DNA from: Vicinamibacteria bacterium
GTDB taxonomy: Bacteria > Acidobacteriota > Vicinamibacteria > Vicinamibacterales > JAENWD01
Direction of reading: 5' to 3'
DNA length: 64,000 bases
Assembly: GCA_963764495.1 (NCBI GenBank)
Contig: CAVXSR010000005.1
Location: forward strand, 74,206 to 138,205
Positions within the stretch are counted from its first letter, which is position 1, and the number at the start of each line of letters is the position of its first letter. The notes under the pieces are model-generated. The model ran no database searches and was not told the DNA's origin. It worked only from the letters and a program-made list of their open reading frames with translations. Below, piece after piece: positions 5,571 through 57,895 of the stretch. The position numbers were made by a program, and so were the translations under genes.

Positions 5571-5576
5571 TATACT
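5571..5576 (+). promoter_or_regulatory. -10 box TATACT placed 6 nt upstream of the ABC-exporter ATG (possible leaderless mRNA)
   Basis: The sequence is TATACTcggacgATG. There is no SD and no clear -35. Confidence 0.35.
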
Positions 5577-7394: not shown

Positions 7395-7506
7395 GCCCAA
7401 GCTAAAGCTTGGGCCTACGTACGACTGGGCATTGTCACCACAGTACGTAGGCCCGAGCTTTAGCTCGGGCATCATTCGGCCGCACTGAAGTGCGGCCCTA
7501 CTGCAG
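7395..7506. repeat. family A cluster (three hairpins)
   Basis: The hairpins are at 7395-7414, 7451-7470 and 7478-7497, followed by the terminus CTACTGCAG. Confidence 0.85.
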
Positions 7507-9454: not shown

Positions 9455-10381
9455 ATGGATCTACACAAGTTTGCGAAGCCGTTCCGGATTGACGATGGCA
9501 AGAAGTTCCGGTTGAAGGACATCAGCCCGACCGACACGCGCGGCATCAAGTCGAAGGCGCGGGCGCTGGAGATGCTGCAGCAGGGCATCGATCGGCTGCG
9601 TCAACTGCAGGATCGGCTCTACGCGCAGGACTGCTGGTCGGTGCTGCTGATCTTCCAGGCGATGGACGCCGCGGGGAAGGACGGCACGATCAAGCACGTG
9701 ATGTCGGGGATCAACCCGCAGGGCTGCCAGGTGTTCTCGTTCAAGGCGCCAAGCAACGAGGAGCTCGATCACGACTACCTGTGGCGCGCGGTGCGCGCGC
9801 TGCCCGAGCGCGGCCGCATCGGCATCTTCAACCGCTCGTATTACGAGGAAGTGCTCGTCGTCAAAGTGCACGAAGAGATCCTGAAGTCGCAGAAGCTGCC
9901 GCCGCCGCTCATCACCAAGGACGTCTGGCGTGAGCGGTACGAAGACATGCACAACTTCGAGCGCTATCTCACGCGCAACGGCGTCATCATCCGCAAGTTC
10001 TTTCTCCATGTCTCGAAGGAGGAGCAGCGCCAGCGCTTTTTGACCCGCCTGCGCGAGTCGGACAGGAACTGGAAGTTCTCGATGGCCGACGCGAAGGAGC
10101 GGAACTGCTGGGACGCGTATCAGGAAGCCTACGAGGACGCCATCCGTCACACGGCGTCAGACCACGCGCCCTGGTACGTCGTGCCAGCCGATCACAAATG
10201 GTTCACGCGGATGGTCGTGTCGGCCGCAGTCGTCGACGCACTCGAAGAGCTCGATCTGACCTATCCTGTCGTCGACGCGCACAAGCGCGAAGAATTGAAG
10301 CTGGTGCAGACGGAGCTTGAGAAGGAAGGGCCGGCGAAGGAAAAGAAGGAGAAGAAGGGGAAGAAGAAAGCGGAGCAGTAG
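9455..10381 (+). CDS. ppk2: polyphosphate kinase 2 (PPK2) family, single-domain polyphosphate:nucleotide phosphotransferase
   Basis: It contains ..LLIFQAMDAAGKDGTIKHV.., FNRSYYEEVLVVKVH and a Lys-rich tail. A GAGGTG SD precedes the start. The TAG stop lies inside repeat terminus CAGTAGGG. Confidence 0.8.
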   Translation: MDLHKFAKPFRIDDGKKFRLKDISPTDTRGIKSKARALEMLQQGIDRLRQLQDRLYAQDCWSVLLIFQAMDAAGKDGTIKHVMSGINPQGCQVFSFKAPSNEELDHDYLWRAVRALPERGRIGIFNRSYYEEVLVVKVHEEILKSQKLPPPLITKDVWRERYEDMHNFERYLTRNGVIIRKFFLHVSKEEQRQRFLTRLRESDRNWKFSMADAKERNCWDAYQEAYEDAIRHTASDHAPWYVVPADHKWFTRMVVSAAVVDALEELDLTYPVVDAHKREELKLVQTELEKEGPAKEKKEKKGKKKAEQ

Positions 10382-10435
10382 GGCGCGACTTTAGTCGCGC
10401 CTGACGTCAGGCCGCACTAAAGTGCGGCCCTACTG
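10376..10435. repeat. family A hairpin dimer (CAGTAGGG..CCCTACTG)
   Basis: It contains the hairpins ggcgcgacTTTAgtcgcgcc and ggccgcacTAAAgtgcggcc. Both termini carry the TAG stops of the convergent flanking genes. Confidence 0.9.
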
Positions 10436-18561: not shown

Positions 18562-18723
18562 ACCGAGCTAAAAGCTCGGTCCTACGTACGCTCTTCGTAG
18601 CCCCACGTCGTCTGCAGTAGGGCCCGACTTCCGCCTTCGCCGAGGCTTCGGCGGACCGCCGTAGCTTTAGCGGAGGCTGGTCAGTCGGGCCGGCACTGGC
18701 TGCACTAAAGTGCGGCCCTACTG
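18562..18723. repeat. family A cluster; the dimer at 18615-18723 carries a 51 nt nested insert in a hairpin loop
   Basis: The structure is ggcccgacTT[18631-18681 insert]CAgtcgggcc. It lies between rplT and rpmI. Confidence 0.85.
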
Positions 18724-34745: not shown

Positions 34746-36458
<1,713 letters not shown>

Positions 36459-50590: not shown

Positions 50591-50650
50591 GGAGGCGGGC
50601 CTTCAGGCCCGCATCTGCCGCTGAAAGCAGGGCTAAAGCCCCGCCTCCAC
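50591..50650. repeat. family A cluster between the OMP gene and thrC
   Basis: It contains gcgggccTTCAggcccgc and ..gggcTAAAgccccgcctccac. The latter contains the thrC stop. Confidence 0.85.
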
Positions 50651-51883
50651 GCGACCGGTGTGACCGGCCAGATAGTCCTCGAACTCTGACAGGCCTTTTC
50701 CGAGCAGGGTCGGCCGCTCGGTGCGACCCTCGAGCACGTCAGCGGTCTTGTACCCGTTCCCCGTGATGCAGATGACGGTCGGCTGGTTCCTGGCAATCGT
50801 GCGGTCTCGGACCAGCTTGATCGCGCCGGCGAGCGTCGCGCCGCCGGCCGGCTCCGTGAAGATGCCCTCCGTTTCCGCCAGCAGCTGAATCGCCTGCAGG
50901 ATCTCGTCGTCTGTCACCATCGTCGCCGAGCCGTGCGTTTCACGGAGCGCTTGCAGCACGTGGTAGCCGTCCGCGGGGTTGCCGATCGCAATCGACTTCG
51001 CGATGGTGTTCGGCTTCACCGGTTCAGGGAATTCGGCGCCGGCGTGGAACGCCCGCACGACTGGCGCCGACCCGGCGGCCTGAACCGCGTGCATCCTCGG
51101 CGTCTCGCCCGCGACCCACCCGAGCGTTTTCAGTTCATCGAACGCGCGCACGATGCGCGGCAGCAGCGTGCCGCCGGCGACCGGGCACACGACGTTCGCC
51201 GGGAGTCGCCATCCGAGCTGCTCGGCGATCTCGAAGCCGTAGGTCTTGGCGCCCTCGGCGTAGTAGGTACGGAGATTGATGTTCGCGAAGCCCCAGCCAT
51301 GACGATCGGCAATCTGCGTGCACAGCCGGTTGATGTCGTCGTAGTTGCCCTTGACGGCCACGACGTGCGGCTTGTAAATCGCCGAGCCCATCACTTTGGC
51401 GGCTTCGAGGTTGTCGGGGATGAAGACGTAGCAGGTCAGTCCGAGCCGTGCCGCGTGCGCGGCGACACTGTTCGCGAGATTGCCCGTCGACGCGCACGCG
51501 AACACGTCGAACCCCAGCTCCACGGCGCGCGTAGCCGCGACCGAGACCACGCGATCCTTGTAGGAGAACGTCGGGTGGTTGACCGAGTCGTCCTTGACGT
51601 ACAGCTCATCGAGCCCGAGACGCGCCGCCAGACGGTCGGCTTTCACCAGCGGCGTGAACCCCGAGTAGAAGCCGGTCTTCGGCGCGGTGACGGGCAGCAG
51701 CTCGAGATACCGCCACAAATTCTCGGGTCGCGCGCCGATTTCCTCGCGAGTGACGGCGGCGCGAATGGCGTCGTAGTCGTAGGTGACCTCGAGCGGACCA
51801 AGACACTGGTCGCAGACGAACAACGCTTCGGCTGGGAAGCCTGTGCCGCACATCCGGCAGCGCAAACCCGTGAAGTAGCTCAT
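50633..51883 (-). CDS. thrC: threonine synthase (with N-terminal Cys4 zinc-ribbon)
   Basis: It contains ..CRMCGTGF..CDQCLGPLEV.. and the PLP-Lys motif ..HPTFSYKDRV.. . The last codons VEAGL* are a repeat hairpin. Confidence 0.9.
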   Translation of the reverse strand: MSYFTGLRCRMCGTGFPAEALFVCDQCLGPLEVTYDYDAIRAAVTREEIGARPENLWRYLELLPVTAPKTGFYSGFTPLVKADRLAARLGLDELYVKDDSVNHPTFSYKDRVVSVAATRAVELGFDVFACASTGNLANSVAAHAARLGLTCYVFIPDNLEAAKVMGSAIYKPHVVAVKGNYDDINRLCTQIADRHGWGFANINLRTYYAEGAKTYGFEIAEQLGWRLPANVVCPVAGGTLLPRIVRAFDELKTLGWVAGETPRMHAVQAAGSAPVVRAFHAGAEFPEPVKPNTIAKSIAIGNPADGYHVLQALRETHGSATMVTDDEILQAIQLLAETEGIFTEPAGGATLAGAIKLVRDRTIARNQPTVICITGNGYKTADVLEGRTERPTLLGKGLSEFEDYLAGHTGRVEAGL

Positions 51884-52824
51884 GATTGCTCGATGGCTCG
51901 CGGCGGCCCGTTGTGCGCCGCCAGCGTCCGCACGCGGCAGGCCAGGCCGAGCCGCGAATAAATGCCAGTTAACGCCTCTTCCACACTTGCCGTCTCACCG
52001 GTGCACAAGGCGGCGACGGTCGGTCCCGATCCGCTGAGGCAGACGCCCAGGAGGCTCGGGTGCTTCAGCGTCAACGCCTCCGACAGTCCAGGCACGAGCG
52101 GGGCGCGATAGGGTTGATGCCACCGATCCCCGAGCGCCTCCGACAACACGTCGAGACGGCCCGTACGAATCGCCTGCAGCAGCAGCGCCACCCGCTGAAG
52201 GTTGAACACCGCATCCGCGAGCGATAGCTCGGACGGCAAGACGCGGCGCGCGTCAACCGTCTTGACGCGCACTTCCGACGTGGCCGTCACGAAGCGCACG
52301 TCGTCCGGCCAGTCCGACGACAACCCCACGACCTTGCCTTCACTGCCGACGCACGCGGCGATCAGCCCGCCGAGCAACGCTGCGGCGACGTTGTCGGGGT
52401 GTCCTTCAAAGGCCGTCGCGTCTGACAGCAGGTCCCGTCCGGCGTCGCCCGTCAGTCGATCGTACAGCACAAGACCGGCGACAATTGCGGCGCCGCTGCT
52501 GCCCAGCCCCCCCTGGACCGGAATGTCGCTCTCCACCTCGAGCTCCAGCCCCGGCAGCTCGACGCCCTCCCGAGCTGCCAGCGTCGTGAGGCTGCGCACG
52601 ATGTAGTCGTCACCGGCGTGCGCCGGCGTCACCGTAATGCGGCCTGGCGCCGCGGCGTTCACGCGACGCACGGTCACGCGGAGATACAGCTGGACGGCAA
52701 CCGCGAGCGCGTCGAACCCCGGCCCGAGATTGGAGATCGAACCTGGAACTTCGAGCCTCAGCCCTTCGACGCGCGTCCGCACCTCGTCCGCGTCCAACGC
52801 GCGTTTCGTTGGGACGCCAGTCAT
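51880..52824 (-). CDS. thrB: homoserine kinase
   Basis: It contains ..VPGSISNLGPGFDALAV.. and the GHMP motif ..PVQGGLGSSGAAIVAG.. . Its ATG overlaps the hom TGA (ATGA). Confidence 0.88.
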   Translation of the reverse strand: MTGVPTKRALDADEVRTRVEGLRLEVPGSISNLGPGFDALAVAVQLYLRVTVRRVNAAAPGRITVTPAHAGDDYIVRSLTTLAAREGVELPGLELEVESDIPVQGGLGSSGAAIVAGLVLYDRLTGDAGRDLLSDATAFEGHPDNVAAALLGGLIAACVGSEGKVVGLSSDWPDDVRFVTATSEVRVKTVDARRVLPSELSLADAVFNLQRVALLLQAIRTGRLDVLSEALGDRWHQPYRAPLVPGLSEALTLKHPSLLGVCLSGSGPTVAALCTGETASVEEALTGIYSRLGLACRVRTLAAHNGPPRAIEQS

Positions 52825-54101
52825 CGTGGGCTCCCATCCGACATGAGGGGAAGATCGACCGGGGGGCACACGTGGAAATCGAGTGCGCCGATGTTGGCCA
52901 TCGCCCCGGCGAGCGTCGCGGGCGCGCAGGGCTCGATCGTTACTACAAACGGCAGCGCGTCCTTGGTGCCTGCGGGCAGCTGCAGGACGGCGTCGATGTT
53001 GATGCCCTGGGCGGCGAGCGCTTGCGCAATGCTCGCCAGAATGCCGGGGCTGTCGCGCACGATGAAGCGAAGGTAGTGCGCGGTCACGAATTCAGAATCG
53101 ACGCGGATCGCGCCGTTGGTGCGCGCGTCGGGTCGCGGCTCGCGGCGATCGGTGGACAACGCCACGAGATCCGACACGATCGCGACTGACGTCGGGCCCC
53201 CGCCCGCGCCCGATCCCGAGTAGACCGTGTCGCCGCCGTACTGTCCGCGCGCCACGATGATGTTCTGGCTGCCGTGGACATGTGCCAGCGGCGAGTTCTT
53301 CGGCACCACCGAGGGCCTGACCGACGCCACGACGCGATCGGCTGCCTCGTCATCGATCGCGGCCTGCGAGATCTGGCGGATCGTGCAACCGAGCGCGCCC
53401 GCATACCGGAAGTCGATGGCATCGACGAGCGTGATCGGCCGGCACGAGATCGCCTCCGGCGGGACCGGCACGCGGAACCCGACGCCGCACAGGATGGCCA
53501 GCTTCGCGCGCGCGTCGTAGCCCTGCACGTCGTCGGTGGGATCGGCTTCCGCGTAGCCCAGTTCCTGGGCCCGTGCCAGCGCCTGGCCGAACGCGGCGCC
53601 CTCGTGCTCCATGCTGGTCAGGATGAAATTGCACGTGCCGTTGAGGATGCCGGTGATGCTGGTCACGCGGTCGCCGGCGATGCCTTCGCGCAGCGCGCCG
53701 ATCACCGGGATACCGCCCGCCACGGCCGCCTCGAAACGGAGCTGCTGGCGTTGCGCCGACGCGAGCTGGGCCAGCGCCGGTCCCTCATGCGCGATCAGCT
53801 GTTTGTTGGCCGTGACCACGGAGCGGCCGCTTTCGAGCGCACGGCGTACCCAGCTGCCGGCCGGATTCCGCCCGCCGAGCAGCTCGACGATCACTGTGGC
53901 GTTGGAGGCGAAGACCTCGTCGATGTCGTCGGTCCAGCGAACGTCGGCGGAAACCCACGGCACCTTCTTGCGAGAGACGTCGCGATTGAAGATGTGGGTG
54001 AGGCGGACGCCCGGCGGCGGATGCTCCGTCAGGATCCTGGTGACGGCGCGGCCGACGGTGCCAAAGCCAAGCAGCGCTACGCGGGTCTCGTCGGTCGCCA
54101 T
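52821..54101 (-). CDS. hom: homoserine dehydrogenase
   Basis: It contains ..VALLGFGTVGRAV.., ..VVTANKQLIA.. and a C-terminal ACT-like region. Confidence 0.9.
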   Translation of the reverse strand: MATDETRVALLGFGTVGRAVTRILTEHPPPGVRLTHIFNRDVSRKKVPWVSADVRWTDDIDEVFASNATVIVELLGGRNPAGSWVRRALESGRSVVTANKQLIAHEGPALAQLASAQRQQLRFEAAVAGGIPVIGALREGIAGDRVTSITGILNGTCNFILTSMEHEGAAFGQALARAQELGYAEADPTDDVQGYDARAKLAILCGVGFRVPVPPEAISCRPITLVDAIDFRYAGALGCTIRQISQAAIDDEAADRVVASVRPSVVPKNSPLAHVHGSQNIIVARGQYGGDTVYSGSGAGGGPTSVAIVSDLVALSTDRREPRPDARTNGAIRVDSEFVTAHYLRFIVRDSPGILASIAQALAAQGINIDAVLQLPAGTKDALPFVVTIEPCAPATLAGAMANIGALDFHVCPPVDLPLMSDGSPR

Positions 54102-54185
54102 CGAGGAAACCGCTATCGTCCACTGGCGTGCGACCAGCCGTCAAGTTTATGCTGTTTACGATTTCATAACATGTCGAAATGACAT

Positions 54186-54214
54186 TTGACCCCCGGAGTT
54201 CGACCTCCTATACT
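54186..54214 (+). promoter_or_regulatory. near-consensus sigma70 promoter for the leader-asd-lysC transcript
   Basis: The sequence is TTGACC-17 nt-TATACT in an AT-rich patch. The leader ATG lies 8 nt after the -10 box. Confidence 0.6.
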
Positions 54215-54222
54215 GGGCGGCA

Positions 54223-54318
54223 ATGTCGCGTGCCGGCACGACCATCGCCATTACCAGCACCACCATGCGAAAGCATGGCGGCCGCGACGGTGGTGTATCC
54301 GGGCTCAACGCGCAATAG
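54223..54318 (+). CDS. Thr/Ile-rich leader peptide (31 aa)
   Basis: The peptide is MSRAGTTIAITSTTMRKHGGRDGGVSGLNAQ*. Five Thr and two Ile codons fall within codons 6-14. It is followed by alternative hairpins and a terminator. Confidence 0.6.
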   Translation: MSRAGTTIAITSTTMRKHGGRDGGVSGLNAQ

Positions 54319-54386
54319 ACAAGCAAGACCGACACGAGCACACAACACCCGCCGACGCGGCACCAGCCGGTCGGCGGTTTTTTTTT
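54258..54386 (+). promoter_or_regulatory. transcription attenuator (regions 1-4)
   Basis: Regions 1:2 pair as CACCACC (54258-64) with GGTGGTG (54289-95). Regions 2:3 pair as GCCGCGACGGTGGTGT (54281-96) with ACACCCGCCGACGCGGC (54345-61). Regions 3:4 pair as CCGCCGAC (54349-56) with GTCGGCGG (54370-77), followed by T9. Confidence 0.6.
54349..54386 (+). terminator. intrinsic terminator of the attenuator
   Basis: An 8 bp GC stem is followed by nine T residues (54378-54386). Confidence 0.7.
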
Positions 54387-54415
54387 GCGCGGACGGTGTC
54401 TGAAGCAGCGTACGT

Positions 54416-54470
54416 CAGTAGGGGCCGACTTCAGTCGGGCCAACGGCCGCACTAAAGTGCGGCCCTACTG
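54416..54470. repeat. family A hairpin dimer (CAGTAGGG..CCCTACTG) between the attenuator and asd
   Basis: It contains the hairpins ggccgacTTCAgtcgggcc and ggccgcacTAAAgtgcggcc. Confidence 0.9.
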
Positions 54471-54496
54471 CCGACTCGACAAGGAGCACAGCGGCA

Positions 54497-55567
54497 ATGT
54501 CGCAGCGGATTGACGTCGGCGTCCTCGGCGCCACCGGCATGGTGGGCCAGCAATTCATCGCGCAGCTTGCCAGCCATCCCTGGTTCCGCGTGACCTGGCT
54601 GGGGGCCAGTGAGCGGTCGGCGGGGCAGTTGTATCGCGACGCCGCGCCGTGGCGTCTGCCGGCGTCGATTCCCGCCGAGCTCGCGAGCCTCGTCGTGCAG
54701 GAGGCGCGTCCCGGCACCGGCGCGCCCGAGCTCGTGTTCTCGGCGATGGACGCCTCGGTCGCGGGAGAGATCGAGGAGGCCTTCGCCGGGGCGGGCCACA
54801 TCGTGGTGAGCAACTCGCGCAACCACCGCATGGCGCCCGATGTCCCGCTGCTCGTGCCCGAGATCAACAGCGATCACATCGCGCTCATCGAGGGGCAGCG
54901 CCGTGCGCGCGGCTGGTCGGGAGCGCTGGTCACCAATCCGAATTGCTCGACGGTGTTTCTCGCCATGGCGCTGGCGCCCCTCAGGCAGTACGGCCTGAAG
55001 TCGGTGCTGGTGACGACGCTGCAGGCGTTGTCCGGCGCGGGGTACCCCGGGGTGGCGTCGCTCGATGCCGTCGGCAACGTCGTGCCGTTCATTTCCGGGG
55101 AAGAGGCCAAGATCGAGAGCGAGCCGCGGAAGATTCTCGGTCGCCTGGAGGGTGGACAGGTGGTGCCGCACCCGGTCGTGTTGAGCGCCTCCACCACGCG
55201 TGTGGCGGTCGTGAACGGGCACACCGAATCGGTCGCGGTCGCGCTCGACTCCGCACCGTCGCTCGACGAGGTCCGTCAGGCGTTCGCGAGCTTCTCGGGC
55301 GCGCCGCAGCGTCATCGGCTTCCCTCGGCGCCGGCGAGCCCGATCGTGTATCTGAGCGAAGAGAATCGGCCGCAGCCTCGCCTGGACGTGGACCGCGACG
55401 GCGGCATGACGGTCACGATCGGGCGCCTGCGCCCCTGTCCAATCCTCGGGTACAAGTTTTTCGTGCTTGGCCACAACACGGTCCGGGGCGCGGCTGGCGC
55501 GGCCGTCTTGAATGCCGAACTCCTCGTGGCGGAGGGAGTCCTCGCTGCGCCGGCGTTGCGAGGGTGA
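54497..55567 (+). CDS. asd: aspartate-semialdehyde dehydrogenase
   Basis: It contains ..VGVLGATGMVGQQF.. and ..VTNPNCSTVFL.. (active-site Cys). Confidence 0.9.
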   Translation: MSQRIDVGVLGATGMVGQQFIAQLASHPWFRVTWLGASERSAGQLYRDAAPWRLPASIPAELASLVVQEARPGTGAPELVFSAMDASVAGEIEEAFAGAGHIVVSNSRNHRMAPDVPLLVPEINSDHIALIEGQRRARGWSGALVTNPNCSTVFLAMALAPLRQYGLKSVLVTTLQALSGAGYPGVASLDAVGNVVPFISGEEAKIESEPRKILGRLEGGQVVPHPVVLSASTTRVAVVNGHTESVAVALDSAPSLDEVRQAFASFSGAPQRHRLPSAPASPIVYLSEENRPQPRLDVDRDGGMTVTIGRLRPCPILGYKFFVLGHNTVRGAAGAAVLNAELLVAEGVLAAPALRG

Positions 55568-55571
55568 AACG

Positions 55572-56978
55572 ATGCGTGTCCTGAAATTCGGCGGCACGTC
55601 GGTCGCCGACGAAAACGCCATCGCGCGCGTCACGGCGATCGTGGCCGCCGAGGCGCGCGCGACGGGGAGCACCGGTGGACCGGTCGTCGTCGTGTCCGCG
55701 CTCGGCGGCGTCACCGACCAGCTGCTCGATGCGGCGTCCGTGGCACGACGCGGGCGCGGCGCTGAGGCCGGCGCGCGCGTCGCCGCGCTTCGTGAGCGGC
55801 ATCAGCGCGTGCTCGCCGCCGTCGCGCCCGGGAACGTCGACTCGCAGGTGCAGCAGTTTGTCGACGAGCAATTCGATCACCTGGCATCGATGGTGGATGC
55901 GCTAGCGGTGCTTCACGACGCGCCAGCCCGCTCGCTCGATGCGATTGCGGCGCTGGGCGAGATGGTCAGTGCGCGCATCGTGACCGCCGCCTTCGCCCAT
56001 GCCGGGCTCGACGCTATTGCGGTCGATCCCCGCGAGCTCATCGTCACTGACGAGCACTTCACGTGCGCGGTTCCGCAAATGGAAACGACGGGCGCGCAGG
56101 TGCGCGACCGTCTGCGGCCGCTGTTGTCGGCCGGCAAGGTGGTGGTGACAGGTGGGTTCGTCGGCGCGACGCGGTCAGGCGTTGCCACGACGCTTGGACG
56201 CGGCGGCTCGGATTACTCCGCGGCGATCCTGGGGGCGGCCCTGGAGGCCGCCGAGATTCAGATCTGGACCGACGTGGACGGGATGCTTTCGGCCGATCCT
56301 CGAGTGGTCGAGAATCCCTCGCTCGTTCCGGCATTATCGTTTGCGGAGGCTGCCGAGCTCGCGTATTTCGGCGCGAAGGTGTTGCACCCGAAAACGATCC
56401 AACCTGCAGCGTCGCGGAACATTCCGGTGCGGATCCTCAACACTTTCAAGCCGTCGGCCGGGGGGACGATCATCGCGAACGCCGGCGCTCCCGACCCCGC
56501 GCCCGTGACCGCGCTGGCCTGCAAGAAGGGCATCACGGTCATCACGATCACGTCCACGGGGATGCTCATGGCGCATGGCTACATGCGCCGGATCTTCGAG
56601 GTCTTCGAGCGCTTCCGCACGTCCGTGGACGTCGTCTCGACGTCGGAAGTCAGCGTCTCGATCACGATCGACGATGGCACGCACCTCGAGGGGATCGTCG
56701 CTGGGCTGTCGGCGTTTGCCGATGTCAGTGTCGCGAGCGAGCTGGCGCTGGTGGCCGTGGTGGGGGAAGGGTACGGCACCGACCCCCGTGCGTTCAGCCG
56801 GGTCGTCCGCGCGCTCGAGGGCATCCCGCTGCGGCTGGTCTCGCAGGCCGACGCCCGCCGGAACGTGACGCTGGTCATCGACGAAGACGATTTGCCGCGC
56901 GCGATGGGCCAACTTCATGCAGAATTCTTCCGACCGGCTCCGAGACCCTCCACAGCCGCCTCGGAAGTGAGCGCCTGA
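55572..56978 (+). CDS. lysC: aspartate kinase
   Basis: It begins MRVLKFGGTSVADENAI.., contains ..GRGGSDYSAA.. and has C-terminal ACT repeats. Confidence 0.9.
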   Translation: MRVLKFGGTSVADENAIARVTAIVAAEARATGSTGGPVVVVSALGGVTDQLLDAASVARRGRGAEAGARVAALRERHQRVLAAVAPGNVDSQVQQFVDEQFDHLASMVDALAVLHDAPARSLDAIAALGEMVSARIVTAAFAHAGLDAIAVDPRELIVTDEHFTCAVPQMETTGAQVRDRLRPLLSAGKVVVTGGFVGATRSGVATTLGRGGSDYSAAILGAALEAAEIQIWTDVDGMLSADPRVVENPSLVPALSFAEAAELAYFGAKVLHPKTIQPAASRNIPVRILNTFKPSAGGTIIANAGAPDPAPVTALACKKGITVITITSTGMLMAHGYMRRIFEVFERFRTSVDVVSTSEVSVSITIDDGTHLEGIVAGLSAFADVSVASELALVAVVGEGYGTDPRAFSRVVRALEGIPLRLVSQADARRNVTLVIDEDDLPRAMGQLHAEFFRPAPRPSTAASEVSA

Positions 56979-56980
56979 AC

Positions 56981-57895
56981 ATGGACCTTCGACAGCTCGA
57001 GATCCTCAAGGCCGTCGCCGAGACGGGCTCGTTTACCGGCGCCGGGCGCCGGTTGCACGTGTCGCAGTCGGCGATCAGCCGGCAGATCCTGCTGCTCGAA
57101 GCCGAGCTGAACGAGCCGCTGTTCTGGCGGATCAAACGCAAGGTCAAGATCACGCCGGCGGGAGAGGCGCTGCTGCAGCTTTCGCTGCGCGTCTTCGACG
57201 ACATCCGCGAGACCACAGACCGGCTGAGCGAGTCACAGCAGCGGCTCACCGGCACGATTCGGCTCGTCGGTGGAATGACGGTGTCGATTTACGTGTTCCC
57301 GACGCTGTTGAAAGAGTTCCAGCGTTTGCACTCGGACGTAGACGTCAAAGTGATGACCGGTCCTGCCGATCGGCTGGTGCGCCGCCTGCGTGCGGGAACG
57401 GTCGATCTCGGTCTGCTGACGCTGCCCGTGAGCGAGCCCGACCTCGTGACGCGGCCGGTGATGCGCGAGGAGCTGCAGCTCGTGACTTATCCGGCGCATC
57501 CGATGGCGCAGAAGAAGCGGGTCGAGCCGCAGGATCTCAACAAGCTGCCGTTCATCCTGTACGAACCTGGGTCGAACACGCGACGCGTCATCGACGAGTT
57601 CTTCGTGCGTGAGCAGGTGCAGCCGAAGATCGTGATGGAAACGGAGAACGTCGAGATCATCAAGGCGATGGTCGCGAGCGGCATCGGATCAACGCTCATC
57701 TCGGATCACGCGATCGAGCGCGAGGTGAGATCCGGCGTTTTGGTGGCGCACCGCATCCAGGGCTCATCGCTGGTGCGCGAGACCGGCTGGGTCTACCTCA
57801 AGGCGAACCGGGTGCCGAGCAAGATCAGCGAGATGATCCGCGTGCTCGACGAGCTCCTGCCGCGGATGGGTCTGACGCAGACCGTCGCCACATAG
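56981..57895 (+). CDS. LysR family transcriptional regulator
   Basis: It begins MDLRQLEILKAVAETGSFTGAGRRLHVSQSAISRQILLLEAEL (wHTH) and continues with a substrate-binding domain. Only the last 304 aa of ORF 56063..57895 are genic. Confidence 0.85.
   Translation: MDLRQLEILKAVAETGSFTGAGRRLHVSQSAISRQILLLEAELNEPLFWRIKRKVKITPAGEALLQLSLRVFDDIRETTDRLSESQQRLTGTIRLVGGMTVSIYVFPTLLKEFQRLHSDVDVKVMTGPADRLVRRLRAGTVDLGLLTLPVSEPDLVTRPVMREELQLVTYPAHPMAQKKRVEPQDLNKLPFILYEPGSNTRRVIDEFFVREQVQPKIVMETENVEIIKAMVASGIGSTLISDHAIEREVRSGVLVAHRIQGSSLVRETGWVYLKANRVPSKISEMIRVLDELLPRMGLTQTVAT

Follow-up and report, generated by a model that had tools for sequence, protein, structure and literature searches.

In Escherichia coli, the thrL leader is a short open reading frame (ORF) rich in Thr and Ile codons that lies near the promoter, and its RNA can form 1:2, 2:3 and 3:4 pairings, the last of which is an intrinsic terminator. 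A different device, the lysine riboswitch (L-box, RF00168), is found upstream of lysC and asd in Firmicutes and Gammaproteobacteria, where an aptamer of ~180 nucleotides (nt) recognizes free lysine. Here, we analyzed the leader region of asd (aspartate-semialdehyde dehydrogenase) in a 64,000-nt stretch of DNA from a Vicinamibacteria bacterium of the phylum Acidobacteriota (assembly GCA_963764495.1, contig CAVXSR010000005.1, positions 74,206 to 138,205). This stretch is hereafter called the window, and all coordinates are given in its own numbering. Our analysis indicates that the element ahead of asd is quite likely a ribosome-mediated (leader-peptide) transcription attenuator of the asd-aspartokinase-lysR operon, of a kind found throughout the Vicinamibacteria.

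A first-pass annotation of the window, made from the nucleotide sequence, had ascribed to this leader the logic of thrL. The likeness holds for the layout, as the asd leader shares with thrL a Thr/Ile-rich ORF, three mutually exclusive pairings, and a target in the aspartate pathway; it does not extend to homology, as the Rfam Thr_leader model gave no match. In contrast to thrL, the asd leader ORF has no Shine-Dalgarno sequence and appears to start at the 5' end of the transcript, and it runs through region 2 to stop in the antiterminator loop. Its targets also differ, being asd-aspartokinase-lysR (asd-dapBAD in other clades) rather than thrABC, the leaders of its relatives add Met and Lys codons, an in-frame CGAAAGC is present, and the lineage is Acidobacteriota. 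As for the lysine riboswitch, it acts on the same pathway step and likewise through premature transcription termination, whereas the asd leader has no aptamer-like conserved core and its proposed sensor is the translating ribosome.

Leader peptides of a comparable build have been described in actinobacteria, including trpL1, ilvL, and leuL2 of Streptomyces lividans, which are leaderless and followed by terminators (PMC8079986), those upstream of amino-acid genes of Corynebacterium glutamicum (trpE, leuA, ilvB, and aroF; PMC3890552), and the leaderless Cys-rich short ORFs that act as attenuators in mycobacteria (bioRxiv 10.1101/834739). These systems share with the asd leader hairpins, a U-rich terminator, amino-acid genes as targets, and a high-GC host, and their leaderless ORFs have a putative counterpart in it. 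However, they belong to another phylum, their ORFs span 12-29 codons as against 21-45 in the asd leaders, and the asd leader is proposed to sense Thr, Ile, Met, and Lys on behalf of asd/aspartokinase. Unlike the actinobacterial type, the asd leader keeps its whole three-helix architecture across a class, and its leaderless status is deduced from spacing. A 2010 survey noted that hardly any attenuator predicted in Acidobacteria had a function assigned to it (PMC2965389). Our literature searches found no leader-peptide attenuator described for Acidobacteria or Vicinamibacteria and, within the library searched, none upstream of asd in any organism, in agreement with the first-pass annotation, which had regarded this type of control as undocumented in the lineage. 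The asd leader represents a new and well-conserved family within a textbook mechanism, and its leaderless feature is not new in itself.

The promoter and the leader ORF are present exactly as first annotated. On the + strand, the -35 hexamer TTGACC (54186-54191) and the -10 hexamer TATACT (54209-54214) are separated by a 17-nt spacer, and TTGAC(C/G) occurs at equal spacing in the upstream DNA of relatives. A promoter scan of positions 53900-54700 returned this pair as the sole sigma70-like site (mean of 0.2 in shuffled sequence) and, within the same interval, no second promoter-like site between the terminator and asd. The ORF that follows (54223-54318, +; ATG at 54223, TAG at 54316-54318) encodes 31 codons, MSRAGTTIAITSTTMRKHGGRDGGVSGLNAQ, with Thr at codons 6, 7, 11, 13, and 14, Ile at codons 8 and 10, and a single Lys codon. 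The presence of seven Thr or Ile codons among the 13 codons 2-14 has p ~2e-4 against the composition of seven neighbouring genes, and the block from Thr6 to Thr14 (TTIAITSTT; 54238-54264, +) is the site of a frame-specific Thr bias.

The leader ATG lies 8 nt past the -10 box, a distance that leaves no space for a Shine-Dalgarno sequence, and none is present. Judged from this spacing, the leader ORF would effectively be leaderless or preceded by a 5' untranslated region of at most 3 nt. This geometry is a property of the family, as TATACT or a one-mismatch variant stands 6-13 nt (most commonly 9 nt) 5' of the start codon in 56 of 57 GTDB leaders, again without a Shine-Dalgarno sequence. Elsewhere in the window, a second TATACT at 5571 (+) stands 6 nt ahead of the ATG that opens a 601-codon ORF, which suggests that leaderless mRNAs are a normal feature that this organism probably makes use of.

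Downstream of the ORF lies the intrinsic terminator (54349-54386, +), consisting of a hairpin at 54349-54377 (-24 kcal/mol) and a U9 tract at 54378-54386, which corresponds to the 3:4 terminator with its T9 proposed in the first-pass annotation. The U9 tract is the sole run of at least seven T or A on either strand of the 64 kb (66.7% GC), and a scan of both strands for hairpins with a downstream run of six or more T matched the leader terminator only; this terminator is therefore far from being a chance feature. Canonical intrinsic terminators are nearly absent from both strands of the window, and gene ends in the source genome presumably use other termination signals, which makes a kept, perfect U9 more striking.

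The terminator competes with an antiterminator formed by region 2, GCCGCGACGGUGGUGU (54281-54296, +), which lies inside the leader ORF, and region 3, ACACCCGCCGACGCGGC (54345-54361, +), which can pair either with region 2 or with region 4. As predicted in the first pass, regions 2 and 3 form 15 bp once region 4 is omitted. An upper helix (54303-54339, +; GCUC at 54303-54306 with GAGC at 54336-54339) extends the antiterminator, and its loop carries the stop codon UAG (54316-54318); this placement of the stop codon in the loop of a GCUCG/CGAGC helix recurs in all clades.

The 1:2 pairing proved to be more intricate than the CACCACC/GGTGGTG helix originally suggested. That pairing stands in so far as CACCACC (region 1b, Thr13-Thr14; 54258-54264, +) is complementary to GGUGGUG (54289-54295) and is 91% paired in clade A, the clade of the window. 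The minimum free energy (MFE) fold of 54221-54388 (-65.2 kcal/mol, z = -2.4), however, prefers another partner for GGUGGUG, which it places in its 5' domain. In this fold region 1a (54237-54248, +), the 5' arm of an outer 1:2 helix, pairs with 54284-54295, and CACCACC is engaged in a local hairpin, CC.CCAUGC-GAAA-GCAUGG.GG (54260-54281, +), which holds the heptamer CGAAAGC (54268-54274, Arg16-Lys17). Region 2 has two redundant alternative partners, 1a (codons 5-9) and 1b (codons 12-14), both of which are Thr-codon segments.

To compare the asd upstream regions of relatives, we searched for matches to the Asd protein, which were found in metagenome-assembled genomes of Vicinamibacteria (Acidobacteriota), the best match being 92% identical. 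Among 80 loci taken from species-representative genomes, at least 62 have the attenuator unit upstream of asd. The unit begins with a TTGAC-type -35 hexamer and a TATACT -10 hexamer, continues with a small ORF complete with start and stop codons, and closes with a GC-rich hairpin and a U tract, which usually comprises exactly nine U and is interrupted in four of these loci. The unit is present in every Vicinamibacteria-type locus in which asd is the first gene of its operon; the remaining loci are 12 from Bryobacterales, where asd lies behind another gene, five in which asd lies inside a thrC-AK2-asd cluster (AK, aspartokinase), and one further locus without the element. The comparison, which the first-pass annotation had put forward as a check, showed that both the small ORF and the alternative pairings are conserved. 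In addition, 22 contigs were retrieved from metagenomes with a 22-base pattern specific to the clade, and 20 of them have the element, either complete or clipped only by the contig end. The other two were one false match, the human-gut contig L093, which fits the search pattern by chance, and one contig ending before the terminator.

Two groups of loci depart from this picture in their arrangement. In L021, L029, L039, L056, and L078 (Vicinamibacterales), asd stands behind thrC and a second, distant aspartokinase (~38% identity), and no attenuator was found ahead of asd. In the subgroup formed by L018, L027, L031, and L032, the element lies ~300 nt upstream of asd and has two CGAAAG copies and a terminator with an interrupted U tract (GGGTTTCGTGCTTT), hence it was missed by the T-run filter.

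The element lies ahead of genes for amino-acid biosynthesis and has a terminator/antiterminator expression platform, features that would also suit a riboswitch for a metabolite, or a tRNA sensor of the T-box type, with an ORF in it by chance. Region 2 (GGUGGU) is superficially T-box-like, and lysC and asd often stand behind lysine riboswitches in other phyla. We nevertheless regard this explanation as very improbable. An Rfam search of 3 kb and of the 301-nt leader at E up to 10 gave only wrong-strand matches far below gathering scores, and 14 related loci gave no match at the gathering threshold. Membership in Thr_leader (RF00506), the lysine riboswitch (RF00168), or T-box (RF00230) was rejected, as none of these models matched even at E up to 10, and the S-adenosylmethionine (SAM) models gave no match either. 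Furthermore, the segment from the start codon to region 2 is very variable, unlike an aptamer (the part from the start codon to CGAAAGC alone measures 21-75 nt), some clades have hairpin insertions of their own, hardly any unpaired nucleotide is conserved, and a riboswitch would leave the frame constraint and the codon bias unexplained.

These last two properties are apparent in the aligned leaders. The ORF is open over 21-45 codons in all 67 aligned sequences and starts with ATG in 49, GTG in 15, and TTG in 3. In clades A-D, Thr accounts for 18-27% of codons when the ORF frame is read but for 0-4% in either alternative frame, and its share in seven neighbouring genes is 6.1%. Within clade A (22 distinct sequences), Thr, Ile, and Met make up 5-11 of 11-16 codons (p 4e-2 to 6e-9 each), and their share of codons 2-14 remains at 40-85% despite drift of the peptide, the variants including SRAGTTIAITSTT, SRTMTTTMITMTT, TGRMTITVIMTTT, CARTITGTTTAT, and LLRRTTIAMMTTT. 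Residues swap places within the block (TTIAITSTT, TMTTTMITMTT, MTITVIMTTT, and others), and leader Thr codons vary synonymously between ACC, ACG, and ACU. The rarer Ile codon AUU represents 51% of leader Ile codons versus 22% in genes, and the leaders of close relatives add one to three Met codons.

The same alignments bear on a further alternative, namely that the ORF encodes a functional micropeptide, or that the terminator is a constitutive insulator between the divergent operons, with no amino-acid sensing in either case. A C-terminal ...GGV..L(D/E) does seem conserved, but this segment overlaps region 2 and the GCUCGA helix. In L099, a 1-nt deletion rewrites the C-terminus (…HGAARWCP*) and shifts the stop codon while the RNA elements remain intact. 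The conservation of GGV..L is therefore that of region 2 and the next helix, and the peptide product itself is not under selection; the N-terminal half, for its part, keeps composition and not sequence. With regard to an insulator, hom is divergent, so that there is no upstream + strand transcript to terminate, and the terminator lies between the promoter and the very gene that this promoter must express. We therefore give this alternative hardly any weight. In keeping with a leader-peptide attenuator, four independent lines (geometry, frame, composition, and turnover) indicate that the leader ORF is probably translated.

Codon content also differs among clades and operons. Clades B and D have Thr- and Lys-rich leaders (e.g., MFARTTTKPTPRKRVPTTGTSRVGGV…) ahead of asd-dapB-dapA-dapD, an arrangement found in L007 and L047 and, by similarity, in L008, L041, L042, L044, L049, L054, L055, L064, L075, and L080. 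In four of the clade B/D loci, 14 additional codons are inserted in frame and fold into a further hairpin. Clades C and E precede asd-AK and have Lys/Arg-rich leaders, those of clade C being Thr-rich too. As read from these leaders, the family as a whole uses codons for all four aspartate-derived amino acids, and the match between codons and operon is loose.

A second signal within the leaders is the heptamer CGAAAGC, which is present in 62 of the 67 leaders, in one or two copies and without synonymous variation, and is read as Arg(CGA)-Lys(AAG). It lies in the ORF frame in 62 of 62 cases, at 13 different distances from the start codon (21-75 nt) that are all multiples of 3, an outcome that was not imposed by the ORF search. 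Selection on the peptide is insufficient to account for the heptamer because synonymous change is absent, although CGA represents just 7% of Arg codons in neighbouring genes. A simple helix is insufficient as well because the structural setting varies: in clade A, L010, and L036 the heptamer caps a perfect hairpin as its loop, whereas in other leaders it is unpaired or part of an internal loop. On the most economical view, CGAAAGC would supply a critical Lys codon, set immediately 3' of region 1 and preceded by an Arg codon that is decoded slowly. Several other roles were considered and discarded. A constant GAAA-tetraloop hairpin, a Shine-Dalgarno-like site for a downstream start codon, and an ANTAR-type dual-hairpin site do not fit all clades, and for an A-AAG frameshift site the -1 frame is open in clades A and B, with stop codons in several members of clades C-E.

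The heptamer invites the principal alternative, namely that the switch is real but that its sensor is the in-frame CGA-AAG-C, either as a lysine stall or as the site of a trans-acting protein or RNA, the Thr richness being a by-product of region 1 mimicking region 3 (ACC ACC ... CCGAC). Besides its invariance, several observations speak for it: Lys reaches 8-10% in the leaders of clades B-E versus 2.0% in genes, the element precedes the lysine/diaminopimelate operon asd-dapBAD in clades B and D, and ACC, as the partner of GGU, makes up 55% of Thr codons in leaders versus 33% in genes. The aspartokinase of the window is, moreover, closest to the lysine-sensitive aspartokinase III (top match NF006570, 445 bits, slightly below the 455-bit cut-off). 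A by-product would not be expected, however, in the structure-free linker of codons 10-12, unpaired between the helices, which in clade A is also rich in Ile, Thr, and Met (I-T-S, I-M-T, I-T-M), nor would it account for a clade A block that turns over while its composition is kept. A protein or RNA site needs no frame, yet all 62 copies are in frame, and the structural context of the heptamer is inconstant. In L066 (2819-2975), the leader of an asd-AK-hom operon, the Thr/Ile-rich peptide (MASRLITTGTITGTRIMRIRGVGGV…) has CGA-AUU (Arg-Ile) in place of CGA-AAG, so that an Ile codon replaces the Lys codon in an otherwise intact element. Finally, a lysine stall site would complement the leader-peptide model and not replace it. 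On balance, we consider it unlikely that the heptamer is the sole sensor.

Conservation of the helices provides a further test of the leader-peptide attenuator. Clades A-D (45 sequences) were analyzed apart from clade E; a joint MAFFT alignment misregisters the clade-E terminator. Counting the 1:2 helix, the local hairpin, and the terminator together, 89.7% of the terminator-state cells of clade A are paired. The outer 1:2 helix (54237-54248/54284-54295) reaches 86.9% across the 22 sequences, with two pairs changed on both sides, the local GAAA hairpin 98%, and the terminator 88%. The CACCACC/GGUGGUG pairing is kept in 90.9% of cells, compared with 32-70% when slid by 1-3 columns. The antiterminator of clade A is 90.5% paired and nearly invariant, and its upper helix is paired in 96.6% of cells in clade A, 81% in clades A-D, and 97% in clade E. 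Across clades A-D, the terminator is paired in 90% of cells.

Compensatory change is found in the antiterminator when clades A-D are taken together. Column pair 16-87 alternates between UA (12 sequences) and CG (11), and pair 14-89 between CG (14) and GC (11). This helix scores 0.138 for covariation, compared with 0.104 in shuffles (0 of 500 reach the observed value) and 0.03-0.075 in slid controls. Position 87, in region 3, covaries with region 2 although in 24 of 44 sequences it has no partner in the terminator, which argues that the 2:3 helix itself is under selection. In clade E, the terminator uses a different register (GCCGACACGG/CCGCGUCGGC), and matching shifts are seen in region 2 (CCGUGUCGG) and region 1 (UCCGACACG). 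There the antiterminator is 91% paired versus 29-41% when slid, and the 1:2 helix is weaker (71%). RNAalifold run on clade E recovered only two invariant helices and no covariation.

Several observations weigh against the interpretation as a leader-peptide attenuator. First, the helices are conserved within single clades but do not covary there, so that the covariation depends on a small number of deep between-clade events. Second, Thr-rich leaders are also found ahead of asd-dapB-dapA-dapD, where lysine is the expected signal, and structure dictates some of the Thr enrichment, as ACC ACC complements the GGUGGU of region 2 and region 1 must resemble region 3. The conservation of CGAAAGC at the nucleotide level likewise goes beyond a plain codon-counting model. 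Third, in equilibrium folding with 28-nt ribosome masks, the full transcript gave the terminator every time, and RNA truncated at nt 144 gave the antiterminator for most masks as well as without a ribosome. The masks do not separate the states, and the switch would therefore have to be kinetic, like that of the textbook attenuators. Finally, per-sequence RNAduplex energies beat mononucleotide shuffles only modestly (2:3, median z -1.6; 1:2, median z -0.8); this region search gives ragged boundaries in GC-rich RNA and was set aside as evidence.

Taken together, the locus combines a short ORF, enrichment in codons of the pathway, an intrinsic terminator, an exclusive antiterminator, and a 1:2 helix over the regulatory codons, as expected of an attenuator. 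From the sequence elements, their conservation, the frame constraint, the codon bias, and the covariation, we infer a start site, translation of the ORF, ribosome stalling, and a regulatory outcome along the following lines. Transcription would start at the leader AUG or within 1-3 nt of it, and the ribosome would load without a Shine-Dalgarno sequence. When charged Thr-tRNA or Ile-tRNA is scarce, the ribosome would stall on codons 6-17, its A site lying at any codon between Thr6 and about Lys17, and cover both region-1 segments; scarcity of Met-tRNA may have the same effect in close relatives, as may, probably, that of Lys-tRNA at the conserved CGA-AAG. Region 2 would then be free to capture region 3 before region 4 is made, allowing read-through into asd. 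When these tRNAs are plentiful, the ribosome would cross region 2 and reach the stop codon, which lies in the antiterminator's apical loop, and regions 3 and 4 would pair, with termination at U9. If no ribosome loads, 1:2 would pair first, and termination would again be the predicted outcome.

The genes around the leader are arranged as initially annotated, with asd followed by a LysC-like aspartokinase and divergent from hom-thrB-thrC, and our analysis adds lysR as a probable third gene of the operon. The asd gene (54497-55567, +) is of the asd_EA type (NCBIfam NF006416, 469 bits; TIGR00978, 431 bits) and has its own Shine-Dalgarno sequence, AAGGAG, at 54481-54486. The monofunctional aspartokinase gene (55572-56978, +; TIGR00657, 344 bits) starts 4 nt past the asd stop codon, and a gene for a LysR-family regulator (56981-57895, +) starts 2 nt past that of the aspartokinase; a LysR-family gene is likewise found downstream in L001 and L003-L006. 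The controlled operon is thus probably asd-AK-lysR. On the - strand lie hom (52821-54101), thrB (51880-52869), and thrC (50633-51883), together spanning 50633-54101, and this divergent arrangement is repeated in L001, L002, and L004-L006.

In the divergent hom/asd promoter region, a perfect palindrome, ATGTC-gaaat-GACAT (54171-54185), adjoins the -35 hexamer. It has the T-N11-A shape typical of the boxes of LysR-type regulators and is kept as CATAACATCTCGAAATGACATTTGAC in the subclade of the window (L001, L004, L081, L084, L087, L092, L096, and L097). It is possible that the LysR-family protein encoded by the third gene of the attenuated operon adds a second layer of control, exerted by a transcription factor. 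Further downstream, between the attenuator terminator and the asd ribosome-binding site, the window has a repeat resembling repetitive extragenic palindromic (REP) elements (54415-54472). This REP-like repeat consists of two hairpins bounded by CAGTAGGG…CCCTACTG (example: GGCCGACTTCAGTCGGGCC … GGCCGCACTAAAGTGCGGCC), and at least seven further copies were found, near 7501, 10378-10433, 18617-18721, 26836, 34774-34779, 40632, and 45562. The closest relative, L001, does not have it, and its terminator-asd gap is 53 nt versus 110 nt in the window.

Beyond the single locus, the variety of leaders and operons raises the tentative possibility of an 'aspartate-family' attenuator that is modular and shared by the whole class. 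In it, 70S ribosomes that initiate on leaderless RNA would sense several amino acids simultaneously, CGA-AAG-C would serve as a dedicated lysine stall site, and lineage-specific Thr/Ile/Met blocks would retune the switch for different operons (asd-AK-lysR, asd-AK-hom, asd-dapBAD). If this broader and more doubtful model is true, the attenuator would be a translational counterpart of the concerted Lys+Thr feedback inhibition of aspartokinase, and a device sensing several amino acids would operate in a genome that is almost without canonical intrinsic terminators.

The ~80 sequences and their structure make up a well-defined RNA family that can be used for annotation and is suitable for Rfam. 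The finding extends known biology and overturns nothing. It suggests that the trunk of the aspartate pathway (aspartokinase and aspartate-semialdehyde dehydrogenase, serving Thr, Met, Ile, and Lys synthesis), an unusual target, may be controlled by a leader peptide, in contrast to the lysine and SAM riboswitches or the repressors of other bacteria. Acidobacteriota are among the most abundant soil bacteria and little is known of their gene regulation; for this phylum, the asd leader would provide a concrete, conserved, and testable case of transcription-translation coupling, and one that implies leaderless translation.

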